Below are positions 17,957 to 61,346 of a stretch of DNA of 64,000 nt, one piece after another (the first letter of the stretch is position 1; the number at the start of each line of letters is the position of its first letter). The position numbers and the translations under genes are program-made. The stretch is from assembly GCA_030390025.1 (NCBI GenBank), contig CM059431.1, positions 124,684,001-124,748,000 on the forward strand, given 5' to 3'. The stretch comes from Squalus acanthias. Lineage: Eukaryota. The notes beneath the pieces are model-generated. The model searched no databases, was not told the DNA's origin, and worked only from the letters and a program-made list of their open reading frames with translations.

Positions 17957-17976
17957 ATGTCAGCTGTGGCTCAGTT

Positions 17977-18007
<31 letters not shown>

Positions 18008-22859: not shown

Positions 22860-23383
22860 ATGGCTGAACATGGGAGAGAGCAAGCAGCCAGGATTTCCGA
22901 CGCTGCACTTGAGGTCTTGGTGGAGGAGGTGGAAAGGAGAGGAGACGTCCTGAATCTGCAGGGGGCCAGGAGGCCCTCCAGACACATGATGAAAAGGCAG
23001 TGGGAGCAGATAGCCATGGAGGTCAATGCCATGAGTTTAGTCCCAAGGATGCAGTGCCGCAAGGTGTCTAATGACCTCACATGAGTGGTCAAGGTCAGTG
23101 AATGCATCTTCAAATGACATATCCTACCAACTGCACCACTAGCCTCAGCCACTGCTCAAATCACCACACCCCCATCACTCACCTCCCAACAATCTCTATC
23201 AATCAGGACTCATAGCTAACATCTAATTGCTTCACATCACCCTCACACACTTAGCACTGCTGCAAGCCTCACACCCACATCCCACAGCTTGCACACACTG
23301 CCAGCCACATCACCCAAACATACTGTACGACACTCACTGACACAATTTTCTATCTCCTGCAGGAGAAGGTGGCACACAACCAT
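22860..23383 (+). pseudogene. Harbinger-associated Myb/SANT-like DNA-binding gene remnant (exon 22860-23093, intron 23094-23362, exon 2 from 23363)
   Basis: ARISDAALEVLVEEV..RQWEQIA..QCRKVSNDLT; AAG|GTCAGT donor and TCTCCTGCAG| acceptor; same structure on the minus strand at ~31570-32100. Confidence 0.75.
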
Positions 23384-26650: not shown

Positions 26651-26770
26651 CACCTGCTGCTTAATGCATGTTTAGCTGTGTGAGCTTGAAGAGAGGATGT
26701 CAGCTAGAAAGTTGAGCTCCAAAATGGCAGCCATGGCATGAAATGAGCGAGGCAAGCTAATTGACATCAT

Positions 26771-35813: not shown

Positions 35814-36618
35814 GGCCCGGAATCTGCAGTGGGTAATAACAGCGAATGAACAGCGTTCGCTGTTATTAACCCTTTGAAACTGACCATAACTTCAGGATTT
35901 AGCGCATATGCATCCGAACGCGGAAATAATGAAGTTGCGGTCAGTCATTCACTGCTCTGACACAGGCTGCGCTGTAGCACCCCACCCCGCCCCATAGCCG
36001 GCCATCAGTCTAATCAGGGAAATCAGGACTCTGAGGACCAAGGTGAGACAGTATAAATGGCACCCATGCTGATGGAATTGATGGCAGGTCAAGTTGAGTT
36101 GACAGAAGCAATCTGTCAATGGTGAGAGAGGTTTTTCCAATGAGTTGACACTGGCTGGAGACTTTGCTGGAAACACTTGCAGCCTGCAGAAAGTTAAATC
36201 TGTGCTGGCAATGTAATCAGCAACAGCTTCTGCCTGAGGAAAGTGATCTGCTGTGAGGTCGGAGCTTTTATAGTACATTTGATGCTGTCAAATAATCAGC
36301 TGTAGCAATGGCCACTCAACTCCCACATCAGGTTGGCAGACGTGGTTCCAGAGCTATGTGAATCCTGTGGCCATTCAGGGAAATTTGAAATGTAGAGGGA
36401 AAAAGGCTCTTAAGTGTTTGACAACAAGTCCATAATGATTTTAATTAGGTCGCCCGTCTTTGCCGGTCGGGTCGCTGCTGTACCAGCAAACATGCCTGAG
36501 GGAAAGGCGTGTGGGGGGCGGGATGACGTCGGGATCCCGACCCACTCTGACTTTTTTCAAATTTCCCACCTGACCTGCCTCCGATGGCGCCCACACGGAC
36601 CCCAGAAAATTCCGGTCC
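35814..36618. mobile_element. Harbinger-like non-autonomous element, partly re-duplicated at 37013-37140
   Basis: Internal homology to 12826-13330; imperfect TIRs GGCCCGGAAT / ATTCCGGTCC. Confidence 0.5.
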
Positions 36619-37724
36619 ATGAGTATGTTTCACCCATTCACTTGCTGGCACCCACTTCCATAATCTAAAACAGAAATTTTGCACCAGATATACTTTTTAC
36701 AATACAGCTCTGAGCATAAAATAGGAATAGGCACAGAGACATCAGGGTTCAGCACAGTAAGGTACATTTTAATGTACCGTAAATTTTGCCACTAATTGAA
36801 ATAGGTTGCTGTCAATCCCTGTTCTATAGAGACCAAGTGATATCAACACATTCTTGTAAGTAACTTTGCTATTAAGATGTAATAGGAGCAGCCACACTCA
36901 CCAGAAATATATTTCCCTTTACGGATATTAAAAAATTGAACTCAGCTGTGGATCATGGTGTGCCAATGGGGAATTATATATCCAAGGCGGCTCCTAATCG
37001 GGCAGCTCTCGACTCTTAAGTGTTTGACAACAAGTTCATAATGATTTCAATTAGGTCGTCCGTCTCTGCCGGTCGGGTCGCTGCCGTACCGGCAAACATG
37101 CCCGAGGGAAAGGCACGTGTGTGGTGGGATGACGGCGGGTTCTAGACACAAAAGGCATCAAGGGGTATGGGGAGAGAGCGGGAATATGGTATTGAGATAG
37201 GGATCAGCCATGATCATATTGAATGGCAGAGCAGGCTTGAAGGGCTGAATGGCCTATTGCTGCTCCTATTTTTCTATGTTTCTACAGATAGATTTCTAGA
37301 CTGAGCTCTCCTTTGCAACTCTATCTGTGGTCATCCATTACCATCCTATGGTCTTGCTTAAGATCACCTGGCCCTAATAGTGGGTACATTTTTGCTCAAA
37401 CTATAAGCTGAAGTTACAAGTTGAAAGCGACCTTCACAGAGCACATTGCCCATACCACAACCCTATTTGTTGTGTCTTTACTGTGCTCTTTTCAACAGTT
37501 GTAACACTGCTCAAATTTGATTTCCAGGACTCCTGGATTCCTCTGTCAACAGGACTATGCTGTTCTGCTGGACTGCACTGTAAGACCTGGCTGCTTTAAC
37601 TCTGACCTGCTACTCAGTTGCTTCAGTTTTTAAGGTAACCGGTTGTACGGTGCTCACCGCACCCGCCCCCCCCCCCCCCCCCCCCACCTGCTGCTGTTTG
37701 CTGCTGAGTTTCTGGACAGTAAAC

Positions 37725-38587
37725 ATCGCAAACAATGGCTTTGGTCTTCCCAATATTTAATTGGAGAACATTTCTGCTCATCCAGAACTGGATGTCGGAC
37801 AAACAATCTAACAATTTAGAGTCCATGAGCTCCTCACACTTGTTATCGGAGGTGAGGGTGGAGGAGACAGGGGAGAGGGGTTTAAGAACACGGTTAGCAG
37901 TAAAGAATAGGAGCCGAGGTTTATCTTTGCATTCCAGAATGATTCTGGAATAGTCAGCAATTTTGGTAGATGAGAGCAGGACTTGATAATGCTTTATGTG
38001 GTCCAGCCAGATCTGGCGGTGAATGGCTAAACCGTTGTCCACCATACCCATTCAAGTCTGCGTCCCTTGGACTTAAGGAAGCAAAGATGAGGGCCGTACC
38101 AGGGGGAACGGCCAGGGTGAGAGAGAGTAATTGTTTTAATAGGGACTAGGGCATCAAAAGTGGGGGCGAGTGTGTGGTTGAGCAGATCTGTAGCTGCAGA
38201 AATGTCATGGTGAATGGAGGGCCAAAGGCTCGACAGTTAGGATTTCGGAAGTGCAGTTGTAAGAGAGTTGGAGAGAGTTTTTTTTCCGGGGCGGACACAG
38301 AAGGAAGTAGGGTTGGGGGTTGGTGGAAGGGAGATGTGGGTGGAGAGGGATACAAGGAAATGGTCTGAGATGGCCTTATCTGCGATTGGCACAATGGGAA
38401 TAGCGAGGCCACGAGAGTTGGCAAGATCGAGGGGATGGCCATGAATACGGGTTGGGGAGATTACATGGAGGGAGAGATTAAGGGAGGATCGGAGGATAGT
38501 GAACTCAGAGGAGAGAGAGCATGATGAATTGAGATGGAGGTTGAAATCACAGAGGATAAGAAGTCGCTCAGTGCAGAGGCTGAGGGA
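37725..38587 (-). mobile_element. L2 LINE ORF2 fragment (downstream part), split by copy B
   Basis: LLILCDFNLHLN, HGHPLDL, ISDHFLV, LQLNIGKT motifs; continues beyond 51110. Confidence 0.85.
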
Positions 38588-40177
38588 TGTAAGGGATACT
38601 CTCCTGACCCTGCGTGTCTCGTAACCTGTGAGGTTCACGCGGCTCTGTGCAGCCTGTATGTCAGTGCGGGTCTAGGCCTGGTCTCCAGCCAGTCTGGGAA
38701 CACTAGACACCCCTGTGAGTGGTTCGAATCACTCTCCCTTACGGTTCTAGACACTGGACTTAGATGCGAGAGCAGTAATGGAGATAAAACTCATGTAGAC
38801 TTGGTTTGAACGGTACGAAATGGAAAATCTTTATTGCATGATACTTAAAATTATGAAATACATGTCATATGCACAGATTAATGACAGTACAATCTTACAA
38901 ACAGTTATAATCACTCTTAGGGAAACGAGGAACGACCAGCACAACGTAAATAGGGCACACATTACAAATATCCTTACTTTAAACCCTCCCCTATCAATAA
39001 CTATCCTAAAACTAGCTTCGTAGGATCCCGAGACTCATGCTCACCACTCGTAATAACTCGGAGAAATCCCGAATAGCTGATCGGATGTTTTTCACCGCAG
39101 CACCCACGTGTTGGTCAGGAGATCTCCTGGTCCCACTTGTTTACTGCTTCTGCTGCTCGGTCAGTCGGCTGGACCGTCCGCTGTAGTGAAGACCTCTGTT
39201 GGTGGACTTTACAGTTCAGTCGAGGAGCACCGTTGTCAATATCATTGATACGATGTGTTTGCACAGTCCAGTTATCGTCGATGCAATATGTCTTGTTAAA
39301 GAAGAAAACTTCGTTGTCAAGAAGACTTGGCTGATCGACCTACAGGCGCGGTCGGGATTTACTGACCGTGGCGATGGATAAGGTCTTCTTCTCTTCTCCT
39401 CTCATCTCATCTCATCTCATCTCATCTCATCTCATCTCGGGCCTTTGGTTCCGCTGCCAGCTACCAACATAGGTCTTTGCAACAGTCTTTTACCCAGGAG
39501 CAGCCACGATGATAACAGCAGCAAGCGGCAAGAGTCACGAACACGAGGCAAGAGAGCGAATGGACGGTTTGGGGCCTGCAATTATAGTGCACAGTTCTTC
39601 CGTTTCCCGCCCAACTACAATGTCCATTCTTTTGTTTAAGGTTTGGCGCCCAAAAATGTCCTGTATGGGTGATCTCTGTCCTTAATGGGTTTCGGGGCTA
39701 CTCCTGAATGTTTGAGTACCTGTTAATATTTCTCCCATTGTTAAATCGGTCGGTGTTCCCCCTGGAGGGGTTTGGGGCTTCCAAGTGTCCTGTATAACTA
39801 CCTGCTAACGGCTCTCTCATCGTAGAGCCGTTGGGAGTTTACATATTAATGTCCTTTGGATGGGCCCTTGATGGCTTTCCTTTGTACCTGGGAGACCGAT
39901 CCCAGTATCGATGTTTATACTGCAAACCCATAATGTCCTGTGTATTGTCTTCACTGTGCTGAATCGTTATCGATCCTGCAAAAATGTTTATTGGAACGCC
40001 ATCTTGTCTGCCTGCCGAAAAGTCTCGAATGTTCTGTCACGCGGTGCGGCGGCCATTTTACAGGCTGCTTGTGTCCAATTTAAACCTGACAGCATTCCGC
40101 TGAAATAAAAGCTGTTTTGAACGAAACTTGTGTTTTCTCCTTATTAAAATGAAATCGCGATAATTGCGAATTCTACA
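38588..40177 (-). repeat. 3' LTR of copy B (1590 bp)
   Basis: Near-identical to 49514-51109; AATAAA on minus strand at 38830-38835; (CTCAT)7. Confidence 0.97.
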
Positions 40178-40189
40178 GTCCCTCCTGTT
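40178..40189 (-). promoter_or_regulatory. Polypurine tract of copy B
   Basis: Minus strand AACAGGAGGGAC directly precedes the TGTAGAA start of the 3' LTR. Confidence 0.75.
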
Positions 40190-40599
40190 GATGCGAATAA
40201 CTCCGCTTATCGTATCAAAAACTCAGTGGTGAGCAATCTTATCTCGATTTCACTCCGAATCCAGTAAATTAATCCCATAAAATTTTAACTTCACTAGGTC
40301 TCTGTGTCGTCCTTATTTCCCAAGAAAATCACATTTTATATCACCATAGGCATCATTTGCCCTTAAACTTACACCACTTGTTTTCCTTCCCGGCGTAACC
40401 AGGCCGATACCTCACGCATCACCTGTATATTTATCTTTTATTCAGGGAAGGAAAAACAAAACCCAAAAAACCAAACAATCAACACCATCACCAAAATAAA
40501 CAAATCCCGACTCTTAAACATGTCGAGTTTCCAACGTATTTACACTGAGTACAAACTTCCGCGGCGCACGTGGCGAGCGGGAGTGACGCCGTTTTCCCA

Positions 40600-42951
40600 T
40601 TACACTGCGCTCTCATCGTGCACGCGCACGTAACGTTCTCGCCACTCTCCCGTGTTCTCATGCTTGGTGAGGCGCTTGTCTCTTTTACAATGTATAAACA
40701 AAAGGTATACTACAATAAACACTTGACAGACGACTAAAATGTGGGAGGCTATTCTGACCCATGAGGGCACTTCAATATTCGTGAACAGATTCCACCACGG
40801 TGGAACCACTATGTCCAAAATGTCTGTACCTATCTCGACGGTTTTCTGTTCTAATGTATAGAAATGCTTTTGTGACACCGCGACGGCTTTTAGAAGTTTG
40901 GTTAAATGCTCGGGGAGAGGGGGAATGAGGTACCCAAAATGTGCGACAAATCGCTGCAAGTCGGTAAAATTCTCTTTTACTGTGAGATGAACAGTGGATG
41001 GTTCAGGGATTGGGATAATTCGCTGTTGTGCTACTTGAACTTCAGCCCTGGGTTTAAAACAGAAACTGCTGTCACTCACCGGACACCGGCTACGGTTTCC
41101 ATGCTGGTAGTGTTGCGCTGCAGTGGTAACACAATATGTTCCACCCCCGATGTATGCTACCTGCGGAGGCACATGATCTTGTGCCATTGCCTCCATGGTG
41201 CAATTCATGGACTTGGCGCCAGCCGTTCTGAACCCGCACTGTGGTGTTAAAAAGGCATTCAAGTGCTGGGGGCACAGTATTATGTGTGCTCCCCTGCCAC
41301 GACAACCAGAGAGATCTGTACCTGTCATCGTTTGCTCCCAGCGGATGACGTAAGGTGGAACCGCTGCATAACGAATGTGGGCTCCCCCCTGAATGACACC
41401 GATGTTCTCTACCCGATACACCGGGGCGGGCTTTGCTGTGTTGCCCAAAACCGGCATGCGTAATACTATTCCCATAATAGTATGGTTTGAACGTCCGCAG
41501 TCCACGGGGACTGGGTAAGCTTCTGAAGCTAGCCTGAGCTGGCACGGACTTAATGCATTCTGAAAAGGGTGGAGCGCCCGCAGGTGTTTGTTACTTATCC
41601 AGGACGGAACCAAACCTTGTTTTAAATCCTCCAAATTACTGCGGCCCTCGCCCAGTAACCACGCCCCGTAAAGCACGCACACCTCGTTCTGCGCAGCTTG
41701 ATCGGATGCATTCCGATCTTCCCTGATCAGGGCATTTACCGTACGCGCATGTTTCTCCAGCTCTGCTATAATCTCTTTTAAGTGTAGTGTCATGGCTTGG
41801 TCCTCGTGCAGACCCGACCCTACCACTTTATTCTCATCTGTAAGAATATCCTTTAACTGTGTTTTTAAACCATTAATCTGGGTCTGCAGCTCCACACTGT
41901 CTAGAGCGTTGACCACAGATGTCCCTGTGTTAAAAGCAGTGAACGCATCGTTCACCAAACCCCTTCTTTGCCTCCCAACTTGATCCAAAACTTCCTGCGG
42001 TGCGGTGTATAAACTTGTCTTATCAATTTCTGCAAAATCAAATTCGTAAAACTGCCTGAACATCTTGGTCAACGGGACCTGGTACAACTGTTCCGTCTTT
42101 TTGGGGCACCACTCTGGTAACCGTACCTCAGTGAGATTTAAAATCACCGAGGCCACCGCGTAATGCACTCCCTGAAATAGTATCTGGTCTGTGGGGACCA
42201 GTACCAAACCGTTCCCGGGTCCCTTACTAGTTTTAGGGCACCCTTCTTCCTCAGTTAGAACTACCGGAATCGTGGGCGGGGCTTTGCGTGGGCGCGTAAT
42301 GAGCTCAGTGGCATTTACTGGGATCGGGGAGAATGGGGCTCCGCACCCCCTGGTGCTCGCATCCCACCTCATCCCCTGTCCGTTATCCTGCCACTGGTTA
42401 ATAAAGAATATGGAGATGCCTTTGGGGCAAACGTACTTTGACCCCCACATACAAACATAAATCCCCTCATCTGGTTCCCACCATTTGTCCCAACAGACTT
42501 TCACTTGTCCATCTGTCCCCGTAATTGTCCGATGGGTATTATTACCCAGTCGCTCCCACTCAACCGAAGAGTTCCTCATAGTTTTGCTCAGCTTTCGCAG
42601 CCACCACCATCGGCTCAATGGGACATTCCCACTGCAGGTCAAACAAATCCGTTTGCCGACGGTGACGCTGATCCTGGGTGCGATGATCCGTACTTTGGGG
42701 CACATTAAAGAAGTCTCTTTGTAGGCGAACCCCGATGTGCTGGAATACTCCGTTGAGTTCGTTCCCAGCCATCCTGGCCACCTTCCCTTGTGGAAATAGG
42801 TGCTGGTCCCTTCTGCCTTCCGTCTCCCGGTCCCATCCACCGCGATGGGGGCCGTGTCCCCGGAACATCCAAACACCACGACATCCTTGGTGAGGCCCCG
42901 ATAGGCCAATCCACATCCGATTGCCACGAGCAAAACTAGAAGTCGTTCCAT
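40600..42951 (-). CDS. env: Envelope glycoprotein, 783 aa: signal peptide, Ig-like domain, furin site RQRR, fusion peptide and heptad repeat, Cys-rich region, TM
   Basis: Uninterrupted ORF between pol and 3' LTR; MERLLVLLVAIGCGLA leader; RQRR|GLVNDAFTAFNTG; TM IASHILVVCQVFIVVYLLFI. Confidence 0.92.
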   Translation of the reverse strand: MERLLVLLVAIGCGLAYRGLTKDVVVFGCSGDTAPIAVDGTGRRKAEGTSTYFHKGRWPGWLGTNSTEYSSTSGFAYKETSLMCPKVRIIAPRISVTVGKRICLTCSGNVPLSRWWWLRKLSKTMRNSSVEWERLGNNTHRTITGTDGQVKVCWDKWWEPDEGIYVCMWGSKYVCPKGISIFFINQWQDNGQGMRWDASTRGCGAPFSPIPVNATELITRPRKAPPTIPVVLTEEEGCPKTSKGPGNGLVLVPTDQILFQGVHYAVASVILNLTEVRLPEWCPKKTEQLYQVPLTKMFRQFYEFDFAEIDKTSLYTAPQEVLDQVGRQRRGLVNDAFTAFNTGTSVVNALDSVELQTQINGLKTQLKDILTDENKVVGSGLHEDQAMTLHLKEIIAELEKHARTVNALIREDRNASDQAAQNEVCVLYGAWLLGEGRSNLEDLKQGLVPSWISNKHLRALHPFQNALSPCQLRLASEAYPVPVDCGRSNHTIMGIVLRMPVLGNTAKPAPVYRVENIGVIQGGAHIRYAAVPPYVIRWEQTMTGTDLSGCRGRGAHIILCPQHLNAFLTPQCGFRTAGAKSMNCTMEAMAQDHVPPQVAYIGGGTYCVTTAAQHYQHGNRSRCPVSDSSFCFKPRAEVQVAQQRIIPIPEPSTVHLTVKENFTDLQRFVAHFGYLIPPLPEHLTKLLKAVAVSQKHFYTLEQKTVEIGTDILDIVVPPWWNLFTNIEVPSWVRIASHILVVCQVFIVVYLLFIHCKRDKRLTKHENTGEWRERYVRVHDESAV

Positions 42952-43234
42952 CCTTCCTTGGTTCCTGTGATCAGATAGAATGAGGTAGCCAGCCTCGCAA
43001 AAAGTCTCTGGCTTTTGTGAAGGGTGAGCGGGTCCCCTGACCTCGCCTCACGTAAACTTCAACGTTTGCTAAACAGACTTCCTCTAAACCTAGCCTTACA
43101 ACTCCCATCATTTTATCGTTATCTGTTAAAAACACTACAAACTTAACCTTATTAAAACTACTTAAAACTTTAAACTAAACTTAAAACCTTAAACTAATAA
43201 CTTTACAATGCCGCCCGTTCTCAGGGCGGCCCCT

Positions 43235-46200
43235 TTAAATCCTGAGAAGGCTGCTGCGAGCTCTTCCCGACGGTGGGAGGGCACTGACCCTTCCCTCTGA
43301 TCTGCCGCAGCCTGTTACTGCTTCGATGTGGCCTGTCTCTACCCGGGTTATCTTAACCTGAAACTTACGCCCTGGGGCAGCCTGTGGACCTGACCACGTC
43401 TTCCTGGGCTGGGGTGCTCTGCTTGACCTACGGGGAATTGCTATGGGCGGGGGCTCCGTGACGGACGGACCGGGTCCCGAGACCTTCAACGGAATGACCT
43501 GGGGTTCCATCACAGGCGCCAGCCCCGCCTCCGCTGACTCCGCCTCCCTAACCTCGGGGCTGGCAGTTCGGGGCCCCGCCCTGCTCGGCCCAGCAGGCGG
43601 CCCTTCACTCGCGAACTCTGCCTCCCCTGAGGACTGGACGTTCAAAGCGGGCGGCCACACCTCTGGGAACCACATAGCGGCTGGCCCGGCCTCCTCTAGC
43701 TCCTTCCTCCTGCTGTCGGGACCTGCAGCTTGTGTGTCCACCCCGTATGGATCTCTACCTAACGGCCCCAATCCTTCCAGACCGTTCCTCTGAAACCACC
43801 CGTCATCATCACTATGCTCATCTGCACTATCCTCGTCTGACCAGGGTACCCTGGGGTCCTCGTCATCTAACCCCCAACTCCAGAAAAACGCTGCATGATC
43901 GTCCGGGATGTCCCTTCCCCTGATGCAAGCTGCTACGCCTGCCTGTGTGCCTTGTGGTCCTACCTGGGGCTGTGTTTTCCCATTGGCGGGATTTACCCCT
44001 GTAGTTTTCCCTTGCGCACCCGGCTGGTACAGTTTACATTGGTTTATGTGGAACCACTTAGTGCGCCGAGGTACTTTTACGGCGTAAACCATGGGACTTG
44101 CCTTGTCTACAATGTTGTAGGGTCCCATATACAGTGGTTCCAGACTCCCTACTCTGGCGTAGTTTCTGACCATGACCTGGTCTCCTACTTCCCACTCCCG
44201 CGTTTTGCGGGGTTCCAGCAACAAGCGATTGCCCTGGTGCTGCCTTCCCATGTTCCCAGCCGCCTGCTCATAAACTTGCTTCAGGCGCTCCAAGAGAGTT
44301 TGGGCGAACTTGTCCCTGCTGATCTCTTGAAGCTGACCCTCAGTGAGCACCGGGGCTAGCACATGGGTGGGGGTTCGCATGAGCCTGCCGGTCATTACCT
44401 CGTGCGGGGAGTACCCCGTACTTTTTGACTGACTGGCCCGGACCCCCATGAGGACTAAAGGCAGAACTTCCGCCCATTTTTGGGGCGAGTTCCTAGTCTC
44501 TTTCCTCAATTTCTCCTTCAGGGTCCGGTTCATACGTTCAACAATCCCGGATGACTGGGGATTGTGTGCTACGTGCCACTTCCCTTCAATGCCCAAAAGC
44601 ATGAGGGTGTTCTGCATCACCTGGCCGGTGAAATGACTCCCTTGGTCTGACTCCACGAAACGGGGGAGTCCCCACCGCGAGAACACTTCCCGGACCAAGA
44701 TTTTTGCTGTACCCAGTGCCGTAGCTGTTCGACAAGGGAAGGCTTCCACCCACTTGGAAAACACATCCACCAGGACGAGGCAGTACTTATAACCTCCCTG
44801 GGTGGTGGGCAGGGGTCCTATATAGTCGATCTGTATCGACTGCCATGGTCCCTCTACCCTTCTTACGTGTCCCATGGGCACCTTCCTTTTCTGGGGGTCT
44901 GGGTTGTTTGCAGCGCACACAAGACAGTTTGCACAGAACTCGCGGACTTGTTCCCTGAGCCCTGGCCACCATCCCGCTTGCTCTACCCGTTGCCAGGTAA
45001 CCTCGGGCCCGGGGTGCCCTGCCCCTGGTCCCTCGTGAGCCAACTGGAGGAATTCCCTCCTGTGCTGCTGCGGCACAACCCACTGCTCCTCGCGGAACAG
45101 CATGCCTTCCTTAACTGAGAGGGTTGCCGTACTGTACGGACCTTCTACCTGCCTCCCCTCAGCAATCGTTTTTAGGACTGCTTTTAGGGCGGGATCCTGG
45201 GCTTGGACGGTCTTAAGGTCTAGGGGCAATGCTACCCTGGTGTTCCCGGTATTCCCGTCCCCACCTCGGACCGCTGCTATGGGTCCGGTTCTATAGGGGT
45301 TCCAGAAAGTACCGTCGCGGGCACCCTCCCTGGCTAGCGCATCCGCCTGCCGGTTGCCCTCCCCACGGGGCTCTGTGGAGGAGTGAGCTTTCACCTTATG
45401 GATGAAAATCTCCCCTTCCTCCCCTACTGCTGCTGCTAAGATCTTCTCCAGCAAGGGCTTTACCGTTAAAGGTCGCCCGTCCGCGGAGGTGTATCCACGG
45501 CGGGACCAAATGGCCAGGTATTCCGTACACGAATTGCAGGTGAACATACTGTCCGAGCAAATCGTGTATGGGGTTGGGAAAATGTCTGGGTGGGTTACCA
45601 CGTACACCACGGCAGACAGCTCAGCCTGCTGCGCGCTCATGGTGCTAGGGAGCTTGATCGCCAGGGCAAGGTCTGCCGCAGGGTCATAAACTCCACACCC
45701 TGTGAGTCGCTCGCCAGCAGATACTGTGCTAGACCCATCAACATAAATCTCGCGCCCAGTGGGATGTATCCCGGCCCGTAAACCTATGTTGACTTCCCAC
45801 ACCCCCTCCACCGAACACCGGTGGGCTGTACCGGGGTATACCAAATTGGCCGCAAGCCTGGGCTCGCAAAGACCTTTTACTCTGATGTCCAACTGGGAGA
45901 GAAGAAGGGTCCAACGCGCAATGCGTGCGCTGCTTACGGTCCCGTCTTTAATCCTCCCATCCAGAAGCATCTTAGTTGGTGTGTGATGTGTGAGGAGAGT
46001 GATGGGAGAGAGCCCTGTGAAGATCGCTGATCTTTTCACAGCCCAATGCGTGGCTAAAAGGTGCCTTTCGCAATTGGAAAAACTTCTCTCCACATCCGTT
46101 AATACCCTGGATGAATAGACAACCGGCCTCAGCTTGCCGTGACGCTCTTGGAGCAGCACGGCGCTTAAGCTGTCTCCGCTGGCAGCTACCTCCAGGAAAA

Positions 46201-47697
46201 ACTCCTTCCCCCCATCTATGGCCCCTAAGGCTGGCGCGGTCTGCAGATCCCTTTTAACTTCTCGAAGGCTGCTTGGCAGCCCTCGTCCCAAAGCCACTCC
46301 ACTCCCTTATGGAGGAGTCGGAGGAGCGGTGCCGCTGTGGCCGCATAATCCTCGATAAAATCCCTGCAGTAACCGGTCAGTCCCAAGAAGGACCTCACAC
46401 CCCTTACGTTGTTGGGAATCGGTAATTCTTGCACCGACTCCCTCCTTGCTTTGTCTATGGCTCTTTCCCCAGCGCGTAGGGTCAGTCCCAGGAATTTTAC
46501 TTCCTGCTGACCGATACGTGCTTTCTTTGGGTTTACTTTAAAACCCTTTCTCGCTAACAGCTCCAATAACTCGTCCAGCAGTGGTCCGTGCTCCTCCCTT
46601 GAGTCCGTAAATAGGAGCAAATCATCCACATACTGTACTATCTGATTGGGCTGACTAAACTCCTTTAAACTTCCTGCCATACACTGGTGAAAAATACTGG
46701 GGCTATTGTGGAAACCTTGTGGCAAACAGTTCCACGTGTACTGTTGCCCTTTAAACGTAAAGGCAAACTTGTACTGGTCCTCTCGCCGCAGCGGGATGGA
46801 CCAAAAACCGTTCGAGATATCCAGCACCGTGAACGTGGTCGCGGACGCTGGGATACTCCCTATTAGGTCAGCAACTGCTGCTACTGTGGGCGCGCAGGCG
46901 GGGATGTTACTGTTAAGGACTCTGTAGTCCACCGTGGCTCTCCACGAATTATCCGGCTTCCTAACCGGCCATAATGGGGAGTTCACGTGTGTGGCTATCG
47001 GCCTCAACACGCCCTGCTGCACCAAGGAAGACATTGCTGCCTCCATATCGGGTTCTGCTTCTTTGGGGAAGTTATACTGTTTTTGGGGTCGGGTCATGGG
47101 GTCCCCATCTACGCTGACCTCAAACCCGACCACCCTCCCACAATCGTGCTTGTGGGTTGCAAACGCGTGCATATTATCTGTCACGTACGTTTGCATGTCC
47201 GTTGGGACATCTGCGACCATAAGCCTGAGGTCGTAGCCTCCGGATGGCTGTACGGTACACAGGACCCCTGTTTCTTCCTCCCCTTGAATTACCATTACCT
47301 CGCCTTTTTCACCTTTAGCCCCCCAGAGACAGTGATTTCTGAGGTCCACGAGGATCCCGTGTCCCGCTAGCAGATCGGACCCGAGAATACCTCTTCCACC
47401 CCCCTTTTGCCATGCCATCAGTATACACTTCCACTTAATGCGAAGTGTCCCTAAACGAATGGATAGCGGGAGGGAAAACGTGCCAGCCTGTTCTTTCCCT
47501 GTGAACCCTGCTAGCGTGAATGGGACCTTGGTAGATAGCGGCGAGTCAAAAGGGTCATCTGTATGGATTATGGTGCAAGAAGCTCCCGTGTCCAACAGAT
47601 AACTGCCCTTTTGTTTCTCTACCTCCATCTCCACCACAGGTCGCCTCCACGCATCATAGCTGAGCGGACACAGGTAGACGGGCTGTGCTGGTTCTAG
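43235..47697 (-). CDS. pol: Pol (PR-RT-tether-RNase H-IN plus C-terminal extension), probably made by readthrough; single 1-bp frameshift at 46252-46255
   Basis: ORFs 46225-47637 and 43235-46297 join if one A is restored in GTTAAAAGGG (copy A has 5 A); catalytic motifs intact. Confidence 0.92.
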
Positions 47698-49509
47698 TCA
47701 TGGGGCACTATTAGACGGTCCTGCGGCACCTACGGGGCCGGTTGCGACCGCCACCTGTCCACGCGCATTCAAAACCATCTTGCGCATGACTCCTAACACT
47801 GCCTCGAGGTCTTCGGGAGAGGTGGGTACCTTTGCTTCCTTAGCCGGGACAGGCGCCTGGGCTCGGACCGCGGGATTTTTATCCTTGGAATCCTTCCAAG
47901 GGTTCCTGCAGTGCTTGCGCCAGTGCCCTGTCTTCCCACACCCGTAACAGGCATTACTTGCCTGTGGGGCGCGATTACCCTCCTGATGCCACTCTCTTTG
48001 AGCCGGGGCTGCGGGTCGTACCTCATGTACTCTTCCCTTAAAGGGACGTGTTGCCATACCCCTTATGTTACGGTAACCTAACGTGAGTCGATTCAAGACC
48101 GACTCTTCCGTAAGGTTGAGGTCATTGGGATCGAACCAGGCTTTTGCCTGCTCTCTAACGGCTGGTAAACTGTTGGCTATTATGCACCTAAGCCAATGAA
48201 CTAAAGCGGCGCCTTCCACATCTTCGCGTTCGGGCGCACCTAGACAGCTGCGCTCATATACTGGCCACAGCCTGTCGGCAAAAACCTTCGGGGGTTCTCC
48301 CTCCATCTGCACTGTCTGTCCCACTCTAGCAAACGGACCTCCGTCGTTCGCTCCCACTACTTCTAGGACCTCATTTTTCAATTCCTCGTAACTTTTATTA
48401 CCCCTCTTGCTATCGCCTGAGAGGCACTGAAGGACCGAGCTATCTAATGAGAACAGCAGCATTTTTGCTGTCTCCCCATCATCGCAGCCGTTGATGGCTG
48501 CGGCTTGCTCAACTTCCCTAAAATGTACGGAAGGGTCGTCTATCTCGGTCAGCTTCCTTACGTGGTTTATCATAGCCCTCAGCTGATGTGAACTGTGAGG
48601 CAACACCAGCTGTCCGAGGAGATCCCCCGGTTCTTCCCCACCGTTTCTGCTTGGGCCCCTTTTAATCCCCGTTACTGGATACAACGATCCCTTTTCTACC
48701 TCTTTTTCAACGGGCTCTTTCGCTTCTTCCGTTGCTTCCTCCCTAACCCAGGTTTCTGAATAGCTGGGTGGCGCGGAGGGCGCAGTGGCTACTACCTCTT
48801 CTGCTTTACTTGGTGGGGAATTTCTAAATCTCTCATTTACTAGCGGCTGGCGTGCCGACGGATTAATAAGGCACACCATGCCGTTCGCATTATTCACGGC
48901 CTTTTTGAGGCTCTCTATCTCTTTTTCGCAGGCGCTATGGTCGGCTCCCTGAAACTTATCCTCAAGGGCCAACTTATACGCCGACCTAACCCCCATTAAG
49001 CTCTCTTCTTGAGTTCTTATCTGGGCAGCTTGACGGTTACATCTTTCCTTCATCCTATTCTCGTTTAATTTTGCTTCAGTGATCTGGCACTCGAGATACT
49101 CTACCCTTGTTTTAAGGTAACTGGAGACTTCCTGGCTTTCCTGGCGTAACTCATTTAAACTCTTAATGAGCACCTCCCCTCCAGAAACCTTCTCCTCCAT
49201 TTCCTCCTCTAAATGCTTGATTCGAGCGGTTAGCGCTGTATTGGTCTGGTTTGAAATCTGGACCTGCCTTTTGTAGCACATAAGCCAGACTGCTTTCTCA
49301 ACTGCCTTTTTATGCTCCTTACTATCCGTCCACCTTTCAGCTGCCTCTAATGGGCTCTTATCCGCTAACAGTTCGCTTATCCACTTTTTCGTTAGATTAA
49401 CCTTTCCAAATACGTAATCCGCTATCTTTTCCTGCATCACATTTTGTACAGTCATTCCAAAATCTAACACACTACCCTCTCGCTGCCAATGTCCTGCCGC
49501 GGTCGCCAT
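47698..49509 (-). CDS. gag: Gag, 603 aa: coiled-coil N-terminus, PSAPPSY late domain, capsid-like region, one CCHC knuckle
   Basis: Open ORF from the ATG overlapping the PBS to TGA; CYGCGKTGHWRKHC. Confidence 0.93.
   Translation of the reverse strand: MATAAGHWQREGSVLDFGMTVQNVMQEKIADYVFGKVNLTKKWISELLADKSPLEAAERWTDSKEHKKAVEKAVWLMCYKRQVQISNQTNTALTARIKHLEEEMEEKVSGGEVLIKSLNELRQESQEVSSYLKTRVEYLECQITEAKLNENRMKERCNRQAAQIRTQEESLMGVRSAYKLALEDKFQGADHSACEKEIESLKKAVNNANGMVCLINPSARQPLVNERFRNSPPSKAEEVVATAPSAPPSYSETWVREEATEEAKEPVEKEVEKGSLYPVTGIKRGPSRNGGEEPGDLLGQLVLPHSSHQLRAMINHVRKLTEIDDPSVHFREVEQAAAINGCDDGETAKMLLFSLDSSVLQCLSGDSKRGNKSYEELKNEVLEVVGANDGGPFARVGQTVQMEGEPPKVFADRLWPVYERSCLGAPEREDVEGAALVHWLRCIIANSLPAVREQAKAWFDPNDLNLTEESVLNRLTLGYRNIRGMATRPFKGRVHEVRPAAPAQREWHQEGNRAPQASNACYGCGKTGHWRKHCRNPWKDSKDKNPAVRAQAPVPAKEAKVPTSPEDLEAVLGVMRKMVLNARGQVAVATGPVGAAGPSNSAP
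49491..49508 (-). promoter_or_regulatory. PBS tRNA-Arg(UCG) of copy B
   Basis: Minus strand TGGCGACCGCGGCAGGAC, 5 nt after the LTR end. Confidence 0.85.
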
Positions 49510-49513
49510 TTTC

Positions 49514-51109
49514 TGTAAGGGATACTCTCCTGACCCTGCGTGTCTCGTAACCTGTGAGGTTCACGCGGCTCTGTGCAGCCTGTATGTCAGTGCGGGTCTA
49601 GGCCTGGTCTCCAGCCAGTCTGGGAACACTAGACACCCCTGTGAGTGGTTCGAATCACTCTCCCTTACGGTTCTAGACACTGGACTTAGATGCGAGAGCA
49701 GTAATGGAGATAAAACTCATGTAGACTTGGTTTGAACGGTACGAAATGGAAAATCTTTATTGCATGATACTTAAAATTATGAAATACATGTCATATGCAC
49801 AGATTAATGACAGTACAATCTTACAAACAGTTATAATCACTCTTAGGGAAACGAGGAACGACCAGCACAACGTAAATAGGGCACACATTACAAATATCCT
49901 TAACTTTAAACCCTCCCCTATCAATAACTATCCTAAAACTAGCTTCGTAGGATCCCGAGACTCATGCTCACCACTCGTAATAACTCGGAGAAATCCCGAA
50001 TAGCTGATCGGATGTTTTTCACCGCAGCACCCACGTGTTGGTCAGGAGATCTCCTGGTCCCACTTGTTTACTGCTTCTGCTGCTCGGTCAGTCGGCTGGA
50101 CCGTCCGCTGTAGTGAAGACCTCTGTTGGTGGACTTTACAGTTCAGTCGAGGAGCACCGTTGTCAATATCATTGATACGATGTGTTTGCACAGTCCAGTT
50201 ATCGTCGATGCAATATGTCTTGTTAAAGAAGAAAACTTCGTTGTCAAGAAGACTTGGCTGATCGACCTACAGGCGCGGTCGGGATTTACTGACCGTGGCG
50301 ATGGATAAGGTCTTCTTCTCTTCTCCTCTCATCTCATCTCATCTCATCTCATCTCATCTCATCTCATCTCGGGCCTTTGGTTCCGCTGCCAGCTACCAAC
50401 ATAGGTCTTTGCAACAGTCTTTTACCCAGGAGCAGCCACGATGATAACAGCAGCAAGCGGCAAGAGTCACGAACACGAGGCAAGAGAGCGAATGGACGGT
50501 TTGGGGCCTGCAATTATAGTGCACAGTTCTTCCGTTTCCCGCCCAACTACAATGTCCATTCTTTTGTTTAAGGTTTGGCGCCCAAAAATGTCCTGTATGG
50601 GTGATCTCTGTCCTTAATGGGTTTCGGGGCTACTCCTGAATGTTTGAGTACCTGTTAATATTTCTCCCATTGTTAAATCGGTCGGTGTTCCCCCTGGAGG
50701 GGTTTGGGGCTTCCAAGTGTCCTGTATAACTACCTGCTAACGGCTCTCTCATCGTAGAGCCGTTGGGAGTTTACATATTAATGTCCTTTGGATGGGCCCT
50801 TGATGGCTTTCCTTTGTACCTGGGAGACCGATCCCAGTATCGATGTTTATACTGCAAACCCATAATGTCCTGTGTATTGTCTTCACTGTGCTGAATCGTT
50901 ATCGATCCTGCAAAAATGTTTATTGGAACGCCATCTTGTCTGCCTGCCGAAAAGTCTCGAATGTTCTGTCACGCGGTGCGGCGGCCATTTTACAGGCTGC
51001 TTGTGTCCAATTTAAACCTGACAGCATTCCGCTGAAATAAAAGCTGTTTTGAACGAAACTTGTGTTTTCTCCTTATTAAAATGAAATCGCGATAATTGCG
51101 AATTCTACA
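49514..51109 (-). repeat. 5' LTR of copy B (1596 bp)
   Basis: Differs from the 3' LTR by one extra A near 49902 and one extra CTCAT unit. Confidence 0.97.
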
Positions 51110-51630
51110 GGGAGCAAAGCAGTGAAGATATCTTAGTAATAAAGTTTTTATGGTACTTGGGTGGGCGGTAGAGAACGAGAATTTTAAATGACAGGTGAGA
51201 GGGGTGGAATAAGGTGAGATGCTCAAGGAGGAGAAAGTGCTGGAGGAGTAGGGGGACAGACCAAGTTGTGATTTGGTGATGAGAGCCACACCGCCACCAC
51301 GGCATTCTGGACGGATGGGGCGGAGATTGGCAAGATTATCCCCCAGCAGGCATGCTGGGCGGGAAGGTCAGCGAGAAAGTAGGATGGGACAGTTGGGGTT
51401 GCTGCTCATGAGGAGGCAGTGACGAGTGCCTCGATGGGCCCTTCAGAGGATGCCAAGAGAGGCATGGAGGGAAGCTGTAGGCTTATCTAAGAGGGAGTCA
51501 AGCCTGGGACGGCGGCAGGAGAGTAGGAAGGTCGAAGAGTAATAAAGGAAAAGGAAAAGGGGGGAGAAAAATGTAGAAATAGAAGTGAACGGCTCAGGTC
51601 CGGAGCAGCAGCCAAAATGCGCACGCAAAT
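51110..51630 (-). mobile_element. L2 LINE upstream part (endonuclease N-terminus)
   Basis: FKILVLYRPPKYHKNFITKISSLLCSL joins SLCTERLLILCDFNLH across the TSD. Confidence 0.82.
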
Positions 51631-57165: not shown

Positions 57166-60100
57166 TGTAAAGTTTCGCAATTATCGCGATTCAAAATAAC
57201 ATAAGAGAAGCAGATTCATTTGATCAGTTTTATTAAACGAAATGCTGTCCTGATAATAAAGGACACCGAAGCCTGTAAAATGGCCGCCGCGCATCGTGGC
57301 AGAAGCTTCCAGAAACACAGTGGGCAGACAAGATGGCGTCGAATATACATTCAGTATAAGATTGGATCATACTCGGTAAACATTGATAAAGACAGGATGC
57401 AACCCGTTTGCATCTTAAACAATAGCTAAGATATAAGTGCTGGAATCGTTTTCCTATGCACAGTAAGGATCATTGTACTGAGCAATCGAAGGCCCATCCA
57501 GACACATCAATATACAAATACCCCCCTGGCTCTACAATGAGAGAGACATTGACGGGTGATTAAGTCGGTATTCGGGGGGCCCCAAAAACCAGTCGAGGAG
57601 ACGATTCATACACATCCTGGCTGGGTCAACAATGGGGAAAACATTAACGGATAGTTGGCCAGTTTCAGGTGCTACCGAAACCCGTTAAAGAAGATAATCG
57701 CCCCATGCTGGGAGTTTTGAGTGCCAAATATTACACAGAGGACAAACATTAAGATTTGAGCAGGAGATAAGGAGGACACATCACTATAACTATAGAGAAC
57801 AAATGTCCATCGCTCTCTTATTCCCCGGGCTGACTCTTATTCGCTTGCCTCTTCATGAACTCGCTTGACTTGTGGGCTCTTGATTTTCTCTCTGGACTTT
57901 GTTGACTCTTGACTCTTAGCCGTACTGGTCGGTTATTCGAGTGTTGGGTGGAGCTCAATCGGTACGAGCCGCCCCGACAAGGGCAAGTAACAGGGTGCAC
58001 CATCCCAAGTGTCGGTAAACGGTGTCTGGACCCGGAGGCCCGAGGAGACGAGACGAGAAGAAGACGAGAAGAAGACGAGAAGAAGTTTCACGTGCCGCCA
58101 CGGTCAGTGAACCCCGACCGCGCCCGAAAAATATAAATACAGGACTCTTCTTTGAGTTCTACCGACTACAACCTGTGTCGAACACAGGAAGACTCTTCTT
58201 TGAATTGTATCCGAGTTCCGTCGAGTTCTTCATGACAACAGGGAGTCTGGCCTGCTTTTCGCAGCAGCGAAAGTAAACAAGTCGGGTGCAGAGACCCTTC
58301 CAAACACGTGACAGTCAGGCGCTGCAGCGAAACGAGCTGAGTGCCTCACTTTAAAATCTCTGAAGTAACACGAGTGGTGAGCATGCTTTCCGATCCTACA
58401 AATCCAGACGTAGTGTAGGTATTGTTAAGGGAGGGTGGTTTTAAATAAGGTTAAGAGATAATGTGTTCCCCTTTTTACGATGTGCCGTGTGTTCTCCATT
58501 TCCATAGACCAAGCTTTATGAATGTATGTATACTTGTACTATCTTTGATTTGCGCCTATGACATGTATTTCATGATTTTAGACGCCATGCAATAAAGATT
58601 TCCATTTTGTTCTATTCAACCGGGTCTATTTGAGTTTTTCTCTGCATTACTGCTCCCTGCACCTAAGTCCAGTGTTAGAACCGTAAGGGCGAGTGGGTCG
58701 AACCACTCACAGGTGCTTATTGCAAAAAGGCTGGCCGGAGACCAGAGCAAACATTAGTATAGGCAACAAAGGCCTAACCTCGCACCAGCACCGTCTGAGA
58801 CACGCCCCCCTTACAGAAAATGGCGACCGCGGCAGGACTCTGGCAGCAGGAGAGTAATGTTTTAGACCCTGGTTTGAATAGGTGAAATGTGATGGATGAG
58901 AAGGTAGCCGACTATGTGTTTGGGAAGGTTAACTTGACCAAAAAGTGGATAAGTGACCTACTGATGGATAAGCGTCTGCTAGACGCCGCCATCAAATGGA
59001 CAGGCAGTAAAGATCATAAGAAGTCGGTAGAGAAAGCGGTCTGGCTGATGTGCTACAAGAAGCAAGTCCAACTTTCGGACCAGGTCATTGCAGCACAGGC
59101 AGCTCAGATCAGGGGATTGGAAACTGAGATGGAGGAAAAGGTCACGGGAGGACAGAAACTCATTGCATCATTGAATGCGTTACATCAGGAACGCCAAATA
59201 GTAGCCAACCACCACGAGGCTAAAATTGATTACCTAGAATGTCAGGTCACGGAAGCAAAATTAAACGAGGGAAGGATTAGAGAACGGTGTATCCGCCTAG
59301 CTAACCAGATAAAATCCCAGGAAGAAAGCTTGAGGGGAGTTAGGGCGGCATACAAGATGGCCCTCGAGGATAGGCATGAGGGAGCCGACCACAGTGTTTG
59401 CCAGAGGGAGATAGAGAACCTAAGGGGGTCTATGAATAAGGCAAACGGCTTGGTGTGTCTCATCAGCCCGTCAGCGAGCCAGCCACAGGTGGGTAGGGAA
59501 TTCCCAAAATCCCTACCGGAAAAAGCAGAAGAGGTATCTACCACTATGCCCTCCGCGCCACCCAGCTATTCGGCAACCTGGGTAAGGGAGGAAGTGGTGG
59601 AAATAGAGAAGAAGGTTCCCGAGGTAGGACAATCCCCGGAGGTAGCGTCGAGACCGGGACCGATGTGTTCGGTCCGAGGTCATAAGGGAGGCCCAAATGA
59701 GGCAGATGGGGCAGACAGGGATGTCCAGAACCAACTTGTATTGCCCCACAGCTCACACCAGCTGAGAGCAATGATTAGCCATGTACGGAAGCTGTCCGAG
59801 TCAGAAGACCCTTCCGTACATTTTAGGGAAGTAGAACAGACCGCAGCGATTAATGGCTGCGACGATGAGGAAAAGACCAAAATGTTGCTGTTCTCTTTAG
59901 ATAGCTCGATCCTTCAGCGTCTCTCCGACGAGAGCAAGAAGGGGAATAAAACTTATGAGGAGTTACGGGACGAGGTCCTAGAAGTGTTAGGGACGGATGA
60001 CGAAGGTCCGTTCGTCAGATTGAGTCAAACCATACAGATGGAGGGAGAACCCCCGAAGGTTTTCGCCGACAGACTGTGGCCAGTATACCAGCATAGCTGC

Positions 60101-61346
60101 CCAGGTGCGCCAGAGCGCAGCTATCTGCACGGCGCCGGGAAAGCTCATTGGCTCAGGTGCATGGTAGCCAACAGCTTGCCAGCCGTCAGGGAGCAGGCCA
60201 GAGCGTAGTTTGATCCCACTAACCCCGACACAACGGAGGAATCTGTCCTGAATCGACTCACCATAGGGTATCGGAACACTAGGAGCACGGGAGCGCGTCC
60301 CCTTAAGGGAAAGGTGCATGAGGCAAAGCCCGCAGCTCCGGCTCAGAAAGAGTGGCATCAGGAGGGAAATCGCGCCCCACAAACCAGTGGTGTTTGTTAC
60401 GGTTGCGGGAAGACAGGTCACTGGCATAAAAACTGCAGGAATCCCAGGAAGGATTCCAGGGAAATAGCTCCCGCAGTCCGAACCCAAGCGCCTGTCTCTG
60501 AGAAAGGAGCTGGTGTGCCTATCCATCCCGATGCGATAGAATCAATGTTGGGAGCCATGCGGTCCCTTATGATTTCGCACGGGAAAGTGGCAGTTGTTAC
60601 CGGCCCCACAGATGCCACAAACCCATCCACCGGTACCCAATGACTAAAGCCCGCGCAGCCCGTTTACCTGTGTCCGCTCAGCTATGATGCGTGGAAAAGA
60701 CCCCTGGTAGAGATGGAAGTAGAGAAGCAGAAGGGTAGTTACTTGTTGAACACGGGAGCTTCATGCACCGTGATCCATACAGATAGCCCCTTTGACTCAC
60801 CACTGTCTACCAAGGTCCCATTCACATGAGCGGGGTTCACGGGAAAAGAGCAGGCTGACGCGTTCTCCATTCCGCTCTCCATTCATTTAGGAGCACTCCA
60901 CACCACATGGAAGTGCATACTGATGAAATGGCAAGAGTGGGGTGGCAGAGGTATCCTCGGATCGGATCTCCTAGCGGAACACGGGATCTTCGTGGACCTT
61001 AGGAATCACTGTCTCTGGGGAGCCAAGGGTGGGAAAGGCAAGGTAGTTGTAATCCCACGGAAGGAAGGAAAAGGGGCCCTGTGTACCATGAAGCCATCCG
61101 GAGGTTACGACCTCGGGCTTATGGTCGCGGATGTCCCAACGGACATGCAAACGTACGTGTCAGATAATATGCACGCGTTTGCAACCCACAAGCACGATTG
61201 TGGAAGGGTTACCGGGTTTGAGGTCAGCGTAGACGGGGACCCCATGACCCGGCCCCAAAAGCAGTATAACTTCCCCAAAGAAGCAGAACCCGACATGGAG
61301 ACAGCAATGTCCTCATTGGTGCAGCAGGGCGTGTTGAGACCGATAG
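57166..61346 (+). mobile_element. Copy C of the retrovirus-like family: LTR 57166-58815, PBS 58821-58838, gag and 5' pol; interrupted by copy D
   Basis: LTR TGTAAAG...TTACA; gag with stops at 58883 and 60206; protease D-to-N (LLNTG) and stop at ~60827. Confidence 0.92.
58820..60643 (+). pseudogene. gag: gag of copy C (two premature stops)
   Basis: Colinear with Gag of copies A and B; ends TGA-CTA. Confidence 0.9.

Follow-up and report, generated by a model that had tools for sequence, protein, structure and literature searches.

A young, multi-copy provirus of Squalus acanthias with an F-like envelope, likely within or next to the SnRV clade of Retroviridae

Introduction

A 12.5-kb provirus occupies positions 38588-51109, on the minus strand, of a 64,000-nt stretch of the Squalus acanthias genome (GenBank assembly GCA_030390025.1, contig CM059431.1, positions 124,684,001 to 124,748,000 of the forward strand); this whole stretch is hereafter called the window. 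The locus raises two questions: to which retroviral lineage does the element belong, and did its family spread recently as an infectious virus? The original prediction had described it as a very young, nearly replication-competent, lokiretrovirus-like provirus. We confirm that the provirus exists as described, far beyond chance, given that the same long terminal repeat (LTR) recurs many times in the genome. We consider it likely that the element is a recent germ-line insertion of a multi-copy retrovirus within Retroviridae, in or next to the clade of snakehead retrovirus (SnRV), a group of unclassified orthoretroviruses. It is filed as an SnRV-clade endogenous retrovirus (ERV) because of its reverse transcriptase (RT) words, the hosts of its relatives, its position in an RT tree and its lack of foamy virus features. 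The predicted youth of the insertion and recent activity of the family stood up to analysis, and the lokiretrovirus label did not.

Structure of the provirus

Local alignment of the two repeats gave 0 mismatches over the aligned bases and 2 gaps, so the LTRs are not diverged. A 1-nt gap falls within a short run of A, and a 5-nt gap equals one CTCAT unit (4 versus 5 units). The original prediction gave both sizes correctly and took both gaps for microsatellite indels, and on the second point the 1-nt gap differs, lying instead in a mononucleotide run. The alignment reproduced the rest of the predicted outline, namely LTRs of 1590 and 1596 nt without substitutions, the GGGA target-site duplication and the outer coordinates. 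Both LTRs are bounded by TG...CA. The features, in window coordinates, are as follows.

38584..38587, no strand: target-site duplication GGGA on the 3' side of the provirus (LTR alignment and flank reading)
38588..40177, minus: 3' LTR, 1590 nt, TG...CA (local alignment)
40179..40189, minus: putative short polypurine tract directly 5' of the 3' LTR (read from the sequence)
40600..42951, minus: env, 783 codons from the ATG at 42951
42964..42966, minus: env splice acceptor, a pyrimidine run then AG; exon 2 from 42964, 13 nt ahead of the env ATG
43235..46306, minus: pol downstream frame, with tether (RT_RNaseH), RNase H (PF00075), integrase (H2C2, rve, GPY motif) and a low-complexity C-terminal tail of ~260 aa
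46249..46282, minus: zone with the single frameshift that splits pol (tblastn with relatives)
46225..47697, minus: pol upstream frame, with protease (DTG 47584-47592) and reverse transcriptase (YVDD 46621-46632); in the gag frame, behind the gag stop
47698..49455, minus: gag, with PPSY at 48760-48771, CCHC zinc knuckle at 47908-47949 and stop TGA at 47698-47700, then CTAG
49491..49508, minus: primer binding site (PBS), 18 nt, complementary to the 3' end of tRNA-Arg(TCG) plus CCA
49514..51109, minus: 5' LTR, 1596 nt, with splice donor G/GTGAG at 49971 inside it
50846-50851 and 49756-49761, minus: TATAAA and AATAAA, respectively, in the 5' LTR (consensus matches only)
51110..51113, no strand: target-site duplication GGGA on the 5' side of the provirus (LTR alignment and flank reading)

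All long frames of the provirus lie on the minus strand (gag 620, pol 490 and 1023, env 815 codons). The open frames of gag and env span 47698-49560 and 40600-43047, respectively. For gag, the first ATG past the PBS is at 49455, and an in-frame ATG at 49509 overlaps the PBS. The two pol frames (46225-47697 and 43235-46306) overlap by 82 nt, and tblastn with the relatives P0004, P0006 and P0007 locates a single change of frame at ~46249-46282. The frame map and tblastn together agree with the predicted open gag and env and single lesion in pol. This frameshift is absent from all ten other full-length copies of the family. Because of it, the window copy as it reads would be unable, alone, to make RNase H and integrase.

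Pfam models match the retropepsin, RVT_1, the RT_RNaseH tether (2.8e-18), RNase_H (PF00075; 1.2e-19), Integrase_H2C2 and rve along pol. The retroviral-type RT and RNase H of the original prediction are therefore both there, as tether plus PF00075; this pair is common to lokiretroviruses and all Retroviridae and does not discriminate between them. Gag matches no Pfam family and has only weak zinc-knuckle matches in the PDB; its CCHC knuckle lies at aa 538-551. The C-terminal tail of pol, ~260 aa past the integrase (43238-44023, minus strand), matches no Pfam family and is retained in pol-deleted variants of the family.

The PBS begins five bases behind the 5' LTR. Its complement, minus CCA, equals the end of a tRNA-Arg(TCG) gene that this genome carries in a tandem tRNA array. 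The first four genomic loci found to match the PBS complement proved to be diverged proviruses that contain 0 tRNAs. The array is a long one on contig 26 of the assembly (~40.51-40.90 Mb), with a 1623-nt period and both tRNA-Arg(TCG) and tRNA-Ser(GCT) genes, and ~90 of the 100 listed pattern matches fall on this contig. Hart and colleagues reportedly described, in 1996, a tRNA-Arg primer for SnRV.

Classification of the reverse transcriptase

As RT references we used the alignments printed in the supplement of Wang & Han (PMC7947760), compared by short-word look-up and by eye. Five RT words were found there, ISNGFWS, LPQGFH, QQYTW and IFHQ with three occurrences each and NPKK with two, all of them in SnRV rows, one per alignment. 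Six longer words (10-11 residues) from the frog, coelacanth and window RTs were not found in the printed alignments. In conserved blocks the SnRV row is close to the provirus RT, whereas the printed loki rows (e.g., Loki-Xtr) are visibly unlike it. The SnRV row of the RNase H alignment is likewise nearer by eye than the loki rows, around YLA-W-RRG...ADG. Among 217 proteins collected as RT, integrase and env search matches, none carries the loki RT motifs LPFGY or CAQGYW.

The nearest RT is that of a shark protein (91% identity), followed by a Latimeria coelacanth protein and four frog proteins (50-52%) and a turtle protein (45%). For Env and Pol, the best-matching proteins are those of skates and sharks, with identities of 53-83%. 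According to the available text of three papers (PMC12193657, PMC4977317, PMC4422223), the SnRV clade consists of ERVs of reptiles, birds, amphibians and fish, and the main coelacanth ERVs and one elephant-shark lineage fall within it.

An IQ-TREE tree of 84 RT rows splits 68 retrovirus-type rows from 16 gypsy-like rows (SH-aLRT 100), and the window RT groups with the coelacanth and frog rows in a clade of 11 rows (support 93). An RT grouping within ordinary Gypsy clades, which the original prediction had named as counting against itself, did not appear. Membership of Ty3/gypsy is rejected on this split and on the extra RNase_H (PF00075). Rows bearing MLVIN_C, the gamma/epsilon-type integrase end, have RTs 41-43% identical to that of the provirus and form another clade; on the provirus integrase MLVIN_C reaches E 0.0047, below the Pfam cut-off. 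Against PDB entries, RT bit scores were 185 for foamy virus, ~170 for MLV/XMRV, 124 for Ty3 and ~60 for HIV, and integrase bit scores were 120 for foamy virus and 109 for Ty3.

We also reject a place among foamy viruses (Spumaretrovirinae). The accessible part of a foamy virus paper (PMC5210030) lists a Gag without Cys-His knuckle, a separate pol mRNA and a tRNA-Lys primer. The provirus has a CCHC knuckle, gag and pol in frame, a tRNA-Arg PBS and no match to Foamy_virus_ENV.

The envelope protein and its fold

Env begins with a signal-like hydrophobic N-terminus, carries a furin-type site, RQRR, at aa 327-330 (41962-41973) and ends in a membrane anchor at aa 731-753 (40693-40761) followed by a tail of ~30 aa. 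Sequence searches were uninformative about its kinship. Pfam at E<=10 returned noise only, with no match to PF00523, and this family was also unmatched in 14 Env relatives at E<=1. No fusion protein was found by phmmer and Env profile searches of the PDB. A single unnamed chordate cluster, at 0.84, came from the ESM Atlas and serves as a lead only.

Structure comparison was more telling. An AlphaFold model of Env built from 11 sequences has a mean pLDDT of 53.8, with values of 70-89 at residues 240-310 and 400-650. In a Foldseek search of the PDB with this model, 242 matches reached E<=0.001 and the top ranks were solely paramyxovirus and pneumovirus F proteins, human parainfluenza virus 3 (hPIV3) F at E 2e-12. 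VIA-align superposed the model on hPIV3 F with Z 13.0 over 331 aligned residues (rmsd 9.3), and all 50 of the 50 matches listed were F proteins, at Z 13.0-9.0, spanning Env 245-655. At the level of the predicted structure, a paramyxovirus-F-like fold over aa ~245-655 is confirmed, and with it the Mononegavirales-F-like Env of the original prediction.

The same model also matches other retroviral envelopes in BFVD: walleye epidermal hyperplasia virus 1 (WEHV-1) at rank 10 (E 1.3e-11), walleye dermal sarcoma virus (WDSV) at rank 28 and feline foamy virus at rank 50 (E 5.5e-4). Baculovirus F and many mononegaviral glycoproteins match it likewise. Foamy Env is F-like by solved structure, as the accessible portion of PMC11468914 reports. 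Because the modeled Envs of WEHV-1, WDSV and feline foamy virus match too, the F-like fold, as modeled, is not a lokiretrovirus marker. Our literature search found no paper that calls the Env of the SnRV clade or of epsilonretroviruses F-like; subscription papers or supplements may do so.

The N-terminal ~225 aa of Env have no counterpart in F and are poorly modeled. Hints of an Ig-like nature are weak (Ig_3 at E 0.44, CD22 at E 0.0052, and the UniRef name of one relative). Folded alone, this module is mostly beta, with a mean pLDDT of 48.7, too poor for a fold search. Env pieces also occur in two sawshark gene models, P0002 ("Niban 1-like", 59% identity) and P0003 ("zinc finger ZFP2-like", 53-54%), in which annotation has probably joined ERV sequence to host exons.

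These results bear directly on the proposal that the element is a lokiretrovirus, a member of the sister lineage of Retroviridae with F-like Env, and new in cartilaginous fish. The F-like fold and the dual RNase H are what one would expect of such an element; its relatives are named "NYNRIN-like" by NCBI, and loki integrase is reported to be close to CGIN1/NYNRIN (PMC7947760); and frogs, among the known loki hosts (PMC7947760 supplement Table S1), have relatives of its Env. Yet the fold is shared by epsilonretrovirus and foamy Envs, the printed loki RT rows are visibly different, all five RT words are found in SnRV alone among the printed rows, the loki RT motifs occur in 0/217 proteins and PF00523 has no match at E<=10. 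Of six Env words (4-5 residues), none is found in the printed loki Env proteins, which argues against close kinship only. Moreover, the 6 cartilaginous-fish genomes of Wang & Han yielded no lokis, although one of these species, Chiloscyllium punctatum, has an Env relative (P0047). On the RT rows, the SnRV-only words, the absent motifs and the lack of PF00523 we reject the label, and we regard a lokiretroviral origin as very improbable.

Copies of the family, selection and age

In the genome-wide LTR search the best 40 of 2745 first-look candidates were scored, and these share 95-100% identity. We then compared 16 other copies of the element. Their LTR pairs differ by 0 mismatches in 9 copies, by 1 in 5, by 3 in 1 and by 19 in 1, the last being probably nested or recombinant. 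From copy to copy, LTRs differ by 1-5%. Matching 4-bp target duplications were found at 10/16. Ten of the 16, all drawn from the best LTR matches, are full-length: gag is open in 10/10, pol is unbroken in 10/10 and env is open in 9/10. All three frames are open in 9/10, and in five of the ten the two LTRs align with 0 mismatches and 0 gaps. Searches with internal regions gave a similar picture. A 1-kb RT query found ~100% identity at 40/40 of the best 40 of 2792 candidates, and a 2.2-kb env query at least 99% identity at 40/40 of the best 40 of 3866 candidates, the window copy being included in both cases.

Five others of the 16, of ~9.2 kb (L021-L025), lack everything from protease through integrase. 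They retain the last ~255-280 pol codons, gag is open in 4/5 and env in 5/5, and their LTR pairs have 0, 0, 1, 3 and 0 mismatches. These are non-autonomous copies that still bear an open env. Among the compared copies that hold env, the gene is open in 14/15.

Could assembly have produced this picture, with repeat collapse or polishing across copies making LTRs identical and creating the pol frameshift? High repetitiveness of the family speaks for it, and so does the nature of the two LTR indels and the pol lesion, all of them changes in length, which is the most frequent kind of long-read error. Contigs of two sequence runs also have one extra letter across 45990-46291, although they may derive from other copies. 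Nevertheless, the flanks are unique, the 4-bp duplications are clean here and at 10/16 other copies, and LTRs match within copies but differ between them, a pattern that collapse would not give. We find an artefact of this kind scarcely credible.

Differences between copies are mainly synonymous. The ratio of nonsynonymous to synonymous differences (pN/pS) is 0.12 for gag, 0.07 for protease-RT, 0.07 for RNase H-integrase and 0.04 for env, and 50/62 variable env sites are at third codon positions. Constraint on the pol tail is looser (pN/pS 0.41, based on just 4 copies). As most differences are synonymous, the diversity arose in a replicating virus that needed all of its genes, env most of all. 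This pattern points to germ-line reinfection rather than copying followed by decay. Belshaw and colleagues are said to have taken constraint on env in HERV-K, in 2004, as an indication of reinfection.

The same data speak to a different account, in which the element is a retrotransposon-like ERV that multiplies solely within germ cells, with env carried along and no infectious particle made. A high copy number (2745-3866 first-look candidates, the best 40 near-identical with the window copy among them) suits such an element, as do pol-deleted variants that were mobilised in trans and have identical LTRs too. It fits poorly with env as the most constrained gene, open in 14/15 copies, with the retention of env by the pol-deleted forms and with the spliced env RNA described below. 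We think germ-cell-only spread unlikely.

How young the insertions are depends on the host mutation rate, and "very young" is meant relative to it. Zero changes in 1590 nt give a 95% age bound of ~0.43 million years (My) at 2.2e-9 per site per year. Old insertions might look young if the host mutates slowly and LTRs undergo gene conversion, and a tenfold slower rate, 2.2e-10, has been assumed for the elephant shark (PMC4422223), which would move the bound to ~4 My. Such insertions would not be expected to have intact frames in 9/10 full-length copies, LTR pairs with at most 1 mismatch in 14/16 and LTRs that differ by 1-5% between copies; moreover, the mainly synonymous differences between copies arose in a replicating virus and not in situ. 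We therefore judge this explanation highly unlikely. That the family was active very recently is strongly supported by the near-identical LTR pairs, the open frames and the low pN/pS, and the suggestion that it may still be infectious is plausible.

Of the words sampled from a 9.9-kb stretch of the element, 48-70% are present in sequence runs under seven organism labels. Low-coverage contigs of three runs span the whole element at 95-100% identity, their pieces having 0-21 differences per 247-963 nt. Two runs that share study and label with one of the holders, X18, contain next to none of the words; presence or absence in individuals, different kinds of library or related species could each explain this contrast.

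Expression and a proposed replication cycle

The gag stop, UGA then CUAG, is in a context that promotes read-through and is efficient in vertebrate cells, as the available sections of PMC13517186 describe; the same sections report that SnRV Gag-Pol is made by stop read-through in the context UAG GGC. For env, a contig of run X6 jumps over 7007 nt whose ends read CT..AC on the plus strand, i.e., GT..AG on the minus strand. The joint runs from the G/GTGAG in the 5' LTR (49971) to the AG 13 nt ahead of the env ATG (42964). In the same run the depth of env words is ~3-5 times that of pol, unlike in run X9. The joint and the env depth fit a spliced env mRNA, on thin evidence. The donor sits 457 nt upstream of the 3' end of the 5' LTR, between the TATAAA (50851) and the AATAAA (49761), a spacing of motifs that would imply an R region of ~1 kb. 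In the contigs examined we found no 2-LTR circles; the joints that go back, in X9 and X18, are the ordinary junction of 3' LTR and internal sequence.

Read together, these features suggest a replication cycle. Transcription would start in the 5' LTR, and reverse transcription would be primed by tRNA-Arg(UCG), to which the PBS matches. Gag, with its PPSY late motif and single CCHC knuckle, would be made from the full-length RNA, and Gag-Pol by read-through of the in-frame UGA then CUAG. Env would come from a spliced RNA whose joint, present in one contig, links the LTR donor to the acceptor 13 nt ahead of the env ATG. The protein would be cleaved at RQRR, and its paramyxovirus-F-like ("class Ib") body would fuse membranes, while the extra N-terminal module of ~225 aa may bind a receptor. 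Integration is accompanied by 4-bp target duplications, as seen at the copies themselves. The family would have spread via functional viruses and repeated infection of germ-line cells, and the pol-deleted gag-env copies must have borrowed the enzymes of others.

Several points weigh against a recently infectious virus in or beside the SnRV clade. The window copy is itself defective in pol, by a lesion that may be either real or an assembly error. The SnRV placement depends on a word test, on how the printed rows compare by eye and on which hosts the unnamed relatives have; the RT tree held no named SnRV, epsilonretrovirus, foamy or loki references, and its clade support of 93 is an SH-aLRT value obtained by a quick, bootstrap-free search. 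No accessory open reading frame (ORF) of at least 100 codons is present between the env stop (40600) and the 3' LTR (40177), whereas SnRV has accessory ORFs, a trait of that virus itself and not one established for its clade. The 16 other copies, drawn from the 40 best LTR matches, are a biased sample. The splice joint is one contig (depth 36, shorter side 23 letters) from a small run, X6, whose RNA nature was only guessed by the tool; none of the runs that hold the sequence is recorded as RNA, and a raw RNA-seq run, X21, gave 0 reads and so no test of transcription. Finally, cartilaginous fish are assumed to mutate slowly, and at the 2.2e-10 assumed for the elephant shark the age bound becomes ~4.3 My.

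Other elements in the window

The window consists mostly of repeats, some of them kin to the provirus. At 2042-6444 (plus strand) lies an older relative of the same virus group. Its gag-like frame is 66% identical in amino acids to the provirus gag, and an in-frame stop after gag is followed by protease-RT-tether-RNase H (protease-RT 89% identical in amino acids) and a truncated integrase. A 440-codon frame at 58886-60208 (plus strand) has no Pfam match and contains gag-like stretches of the same virus group; it is therefore a third family member within the 64-kb window. RT fragments of other retroelements occur at 17285-18034, 23255-24754 and 26765-27823 (plus strand), comprising a gypsy-type RNase H region without the added RNase_H and two RVT_1 pieces. 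Just outside the provirus, at 36407-37150, is a 138-nt direct repeat in two copies 606 nt apart, with 88% identity.

Significance

We know of no exogenous retrovirus from a cartilaginous fish. In the literature consulted, retroviral traces in these animals are endogenous, the elephant-shark copies being dated to 54-75 My, and the SnRV-like ERVs known from a chimaera are old fossils (PMC4422223). With its dozens or more of near-identical copies, open frames, strong purifying selection on env and spliced env RNA, the family described here would be suited to watching endogenisation in the oldest jawed-vertebrate lineage.

Possession of an F-like envelope is not enough to call an element a lokiretrovirus. 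Should such Envs prove common to the foamy, epsilon, SnRV-like and loki lineages, one could directly test how the envelope of retroviruses originated. The broadest reading of our results is tentative, and we hold it to be doubtful as a whole: an infectious SnRV-clade orthoretrovirus may circulate in elasmobranchs now, or may have done so until at most a few hundred thousand years ago, with repeated germ-line entry that left 98-100% identical sequence under several organism labels. Its Env would be of class Ib with an N-terminal Ig-like receptor module, and the F-like fusogen, shared with foamy, epsilon and loki Envs, would be ancestral to retroviral envelopes. Were this true, such a fusogen would be the ancestral retroviral envelope and not a peculiarity of lokiretroviruses.

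Comparison with known systems

With lokiretroviruses the provirus shares the LTR-gag-pol-env layout, the tether plus RNase H, an F-fold Env with a furin-type site, and copies with identical LTRs, loki copies being dated to 0-36.8 My (PMC7947760). It differs in an RT visibly unlike every printed loki row, in an Env without similarity to PF00523 and in having no Pfam match to SMC domains, unlike lokis. The printed loki Envs, of ~560 aa, lack the N-terminal module of ~225 aa found in the provirus Env.

The Envs of foamy viruses and the F proteins of paramyxoviruses and pneumoviruses have the same core fold as the provirus Env (Z up to 13.0, with hPIV3 F; E 5.5e-4 with the feline foamy virus model). 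A class Ib scheme, in which a receptor-binding module is added to a minimal F scaffold, is proposed in the accessible text of PMC11468914, and the provirus Env is built alike. The foamy module sits between the subunits, whereas that of the provirus is N-terminal. The provirus Env also lacks a leader peptide and a Foamy_virus_ENV match, and neither its Gag nor its gag-pol expression is foamy-like.

Epsilonretroviruses (WDSV, WEHV) resemble the provirus in being fish retroviruses with stop-codon read-through, and their Env models match. The RT relatives that bear MLVIN_C are nevertheless only 41-43% identical and form a separate clade.

Copies of the family can also be set beside the ERVi of Wang et al. 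2023 (PMC10435555). Of the three traits by which ERVi are recognised in the available part of that paper, some copies of the family show two, identical LTRs and unbroken frames, the third being insertional polymorphism; the window copy itself falls outside on account of its LTR indels and pol frameshift. The survey screened 13 cartilaginous fishes, and none of their orders is among the 37 host orders in the legend of its Fig. 2.

The closest likeness is to SnRV and SnRV-like ERVs, CmiERV lineage I of the elephant shark among them. SnRV shares with the provirus the five RT words, an RNase H stretch that is alike by eye and in-frame gag-pol read-through, and the provirus Gag is orthoretroviral, with a CCHC knuckle. 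The hosts of its nearest relatives (coelacanth, frogs and turtle) fit the published clade of SnRV-like ERVs. Some features set the provirus apart: SnRV has ORF1-3 and a 3'ORF, whereas no ORF of at least 100 codons follows env in the provirus; the SnRV Env tail, given as 136 aa in the available portion of PMC12193657, compares with ~30 aa; and the gag stop context is UGA-CUAG as against the UAG-GGC reported for SnRV in the sections cited above. SnRV-like ERVs were already known in cartilaginous fish from the elephant shark (PMC4422223). There the CmiERV copies are dated to 54-75 My, whereas the family described here has copies with 0-1 LTR mismatches and open frames.

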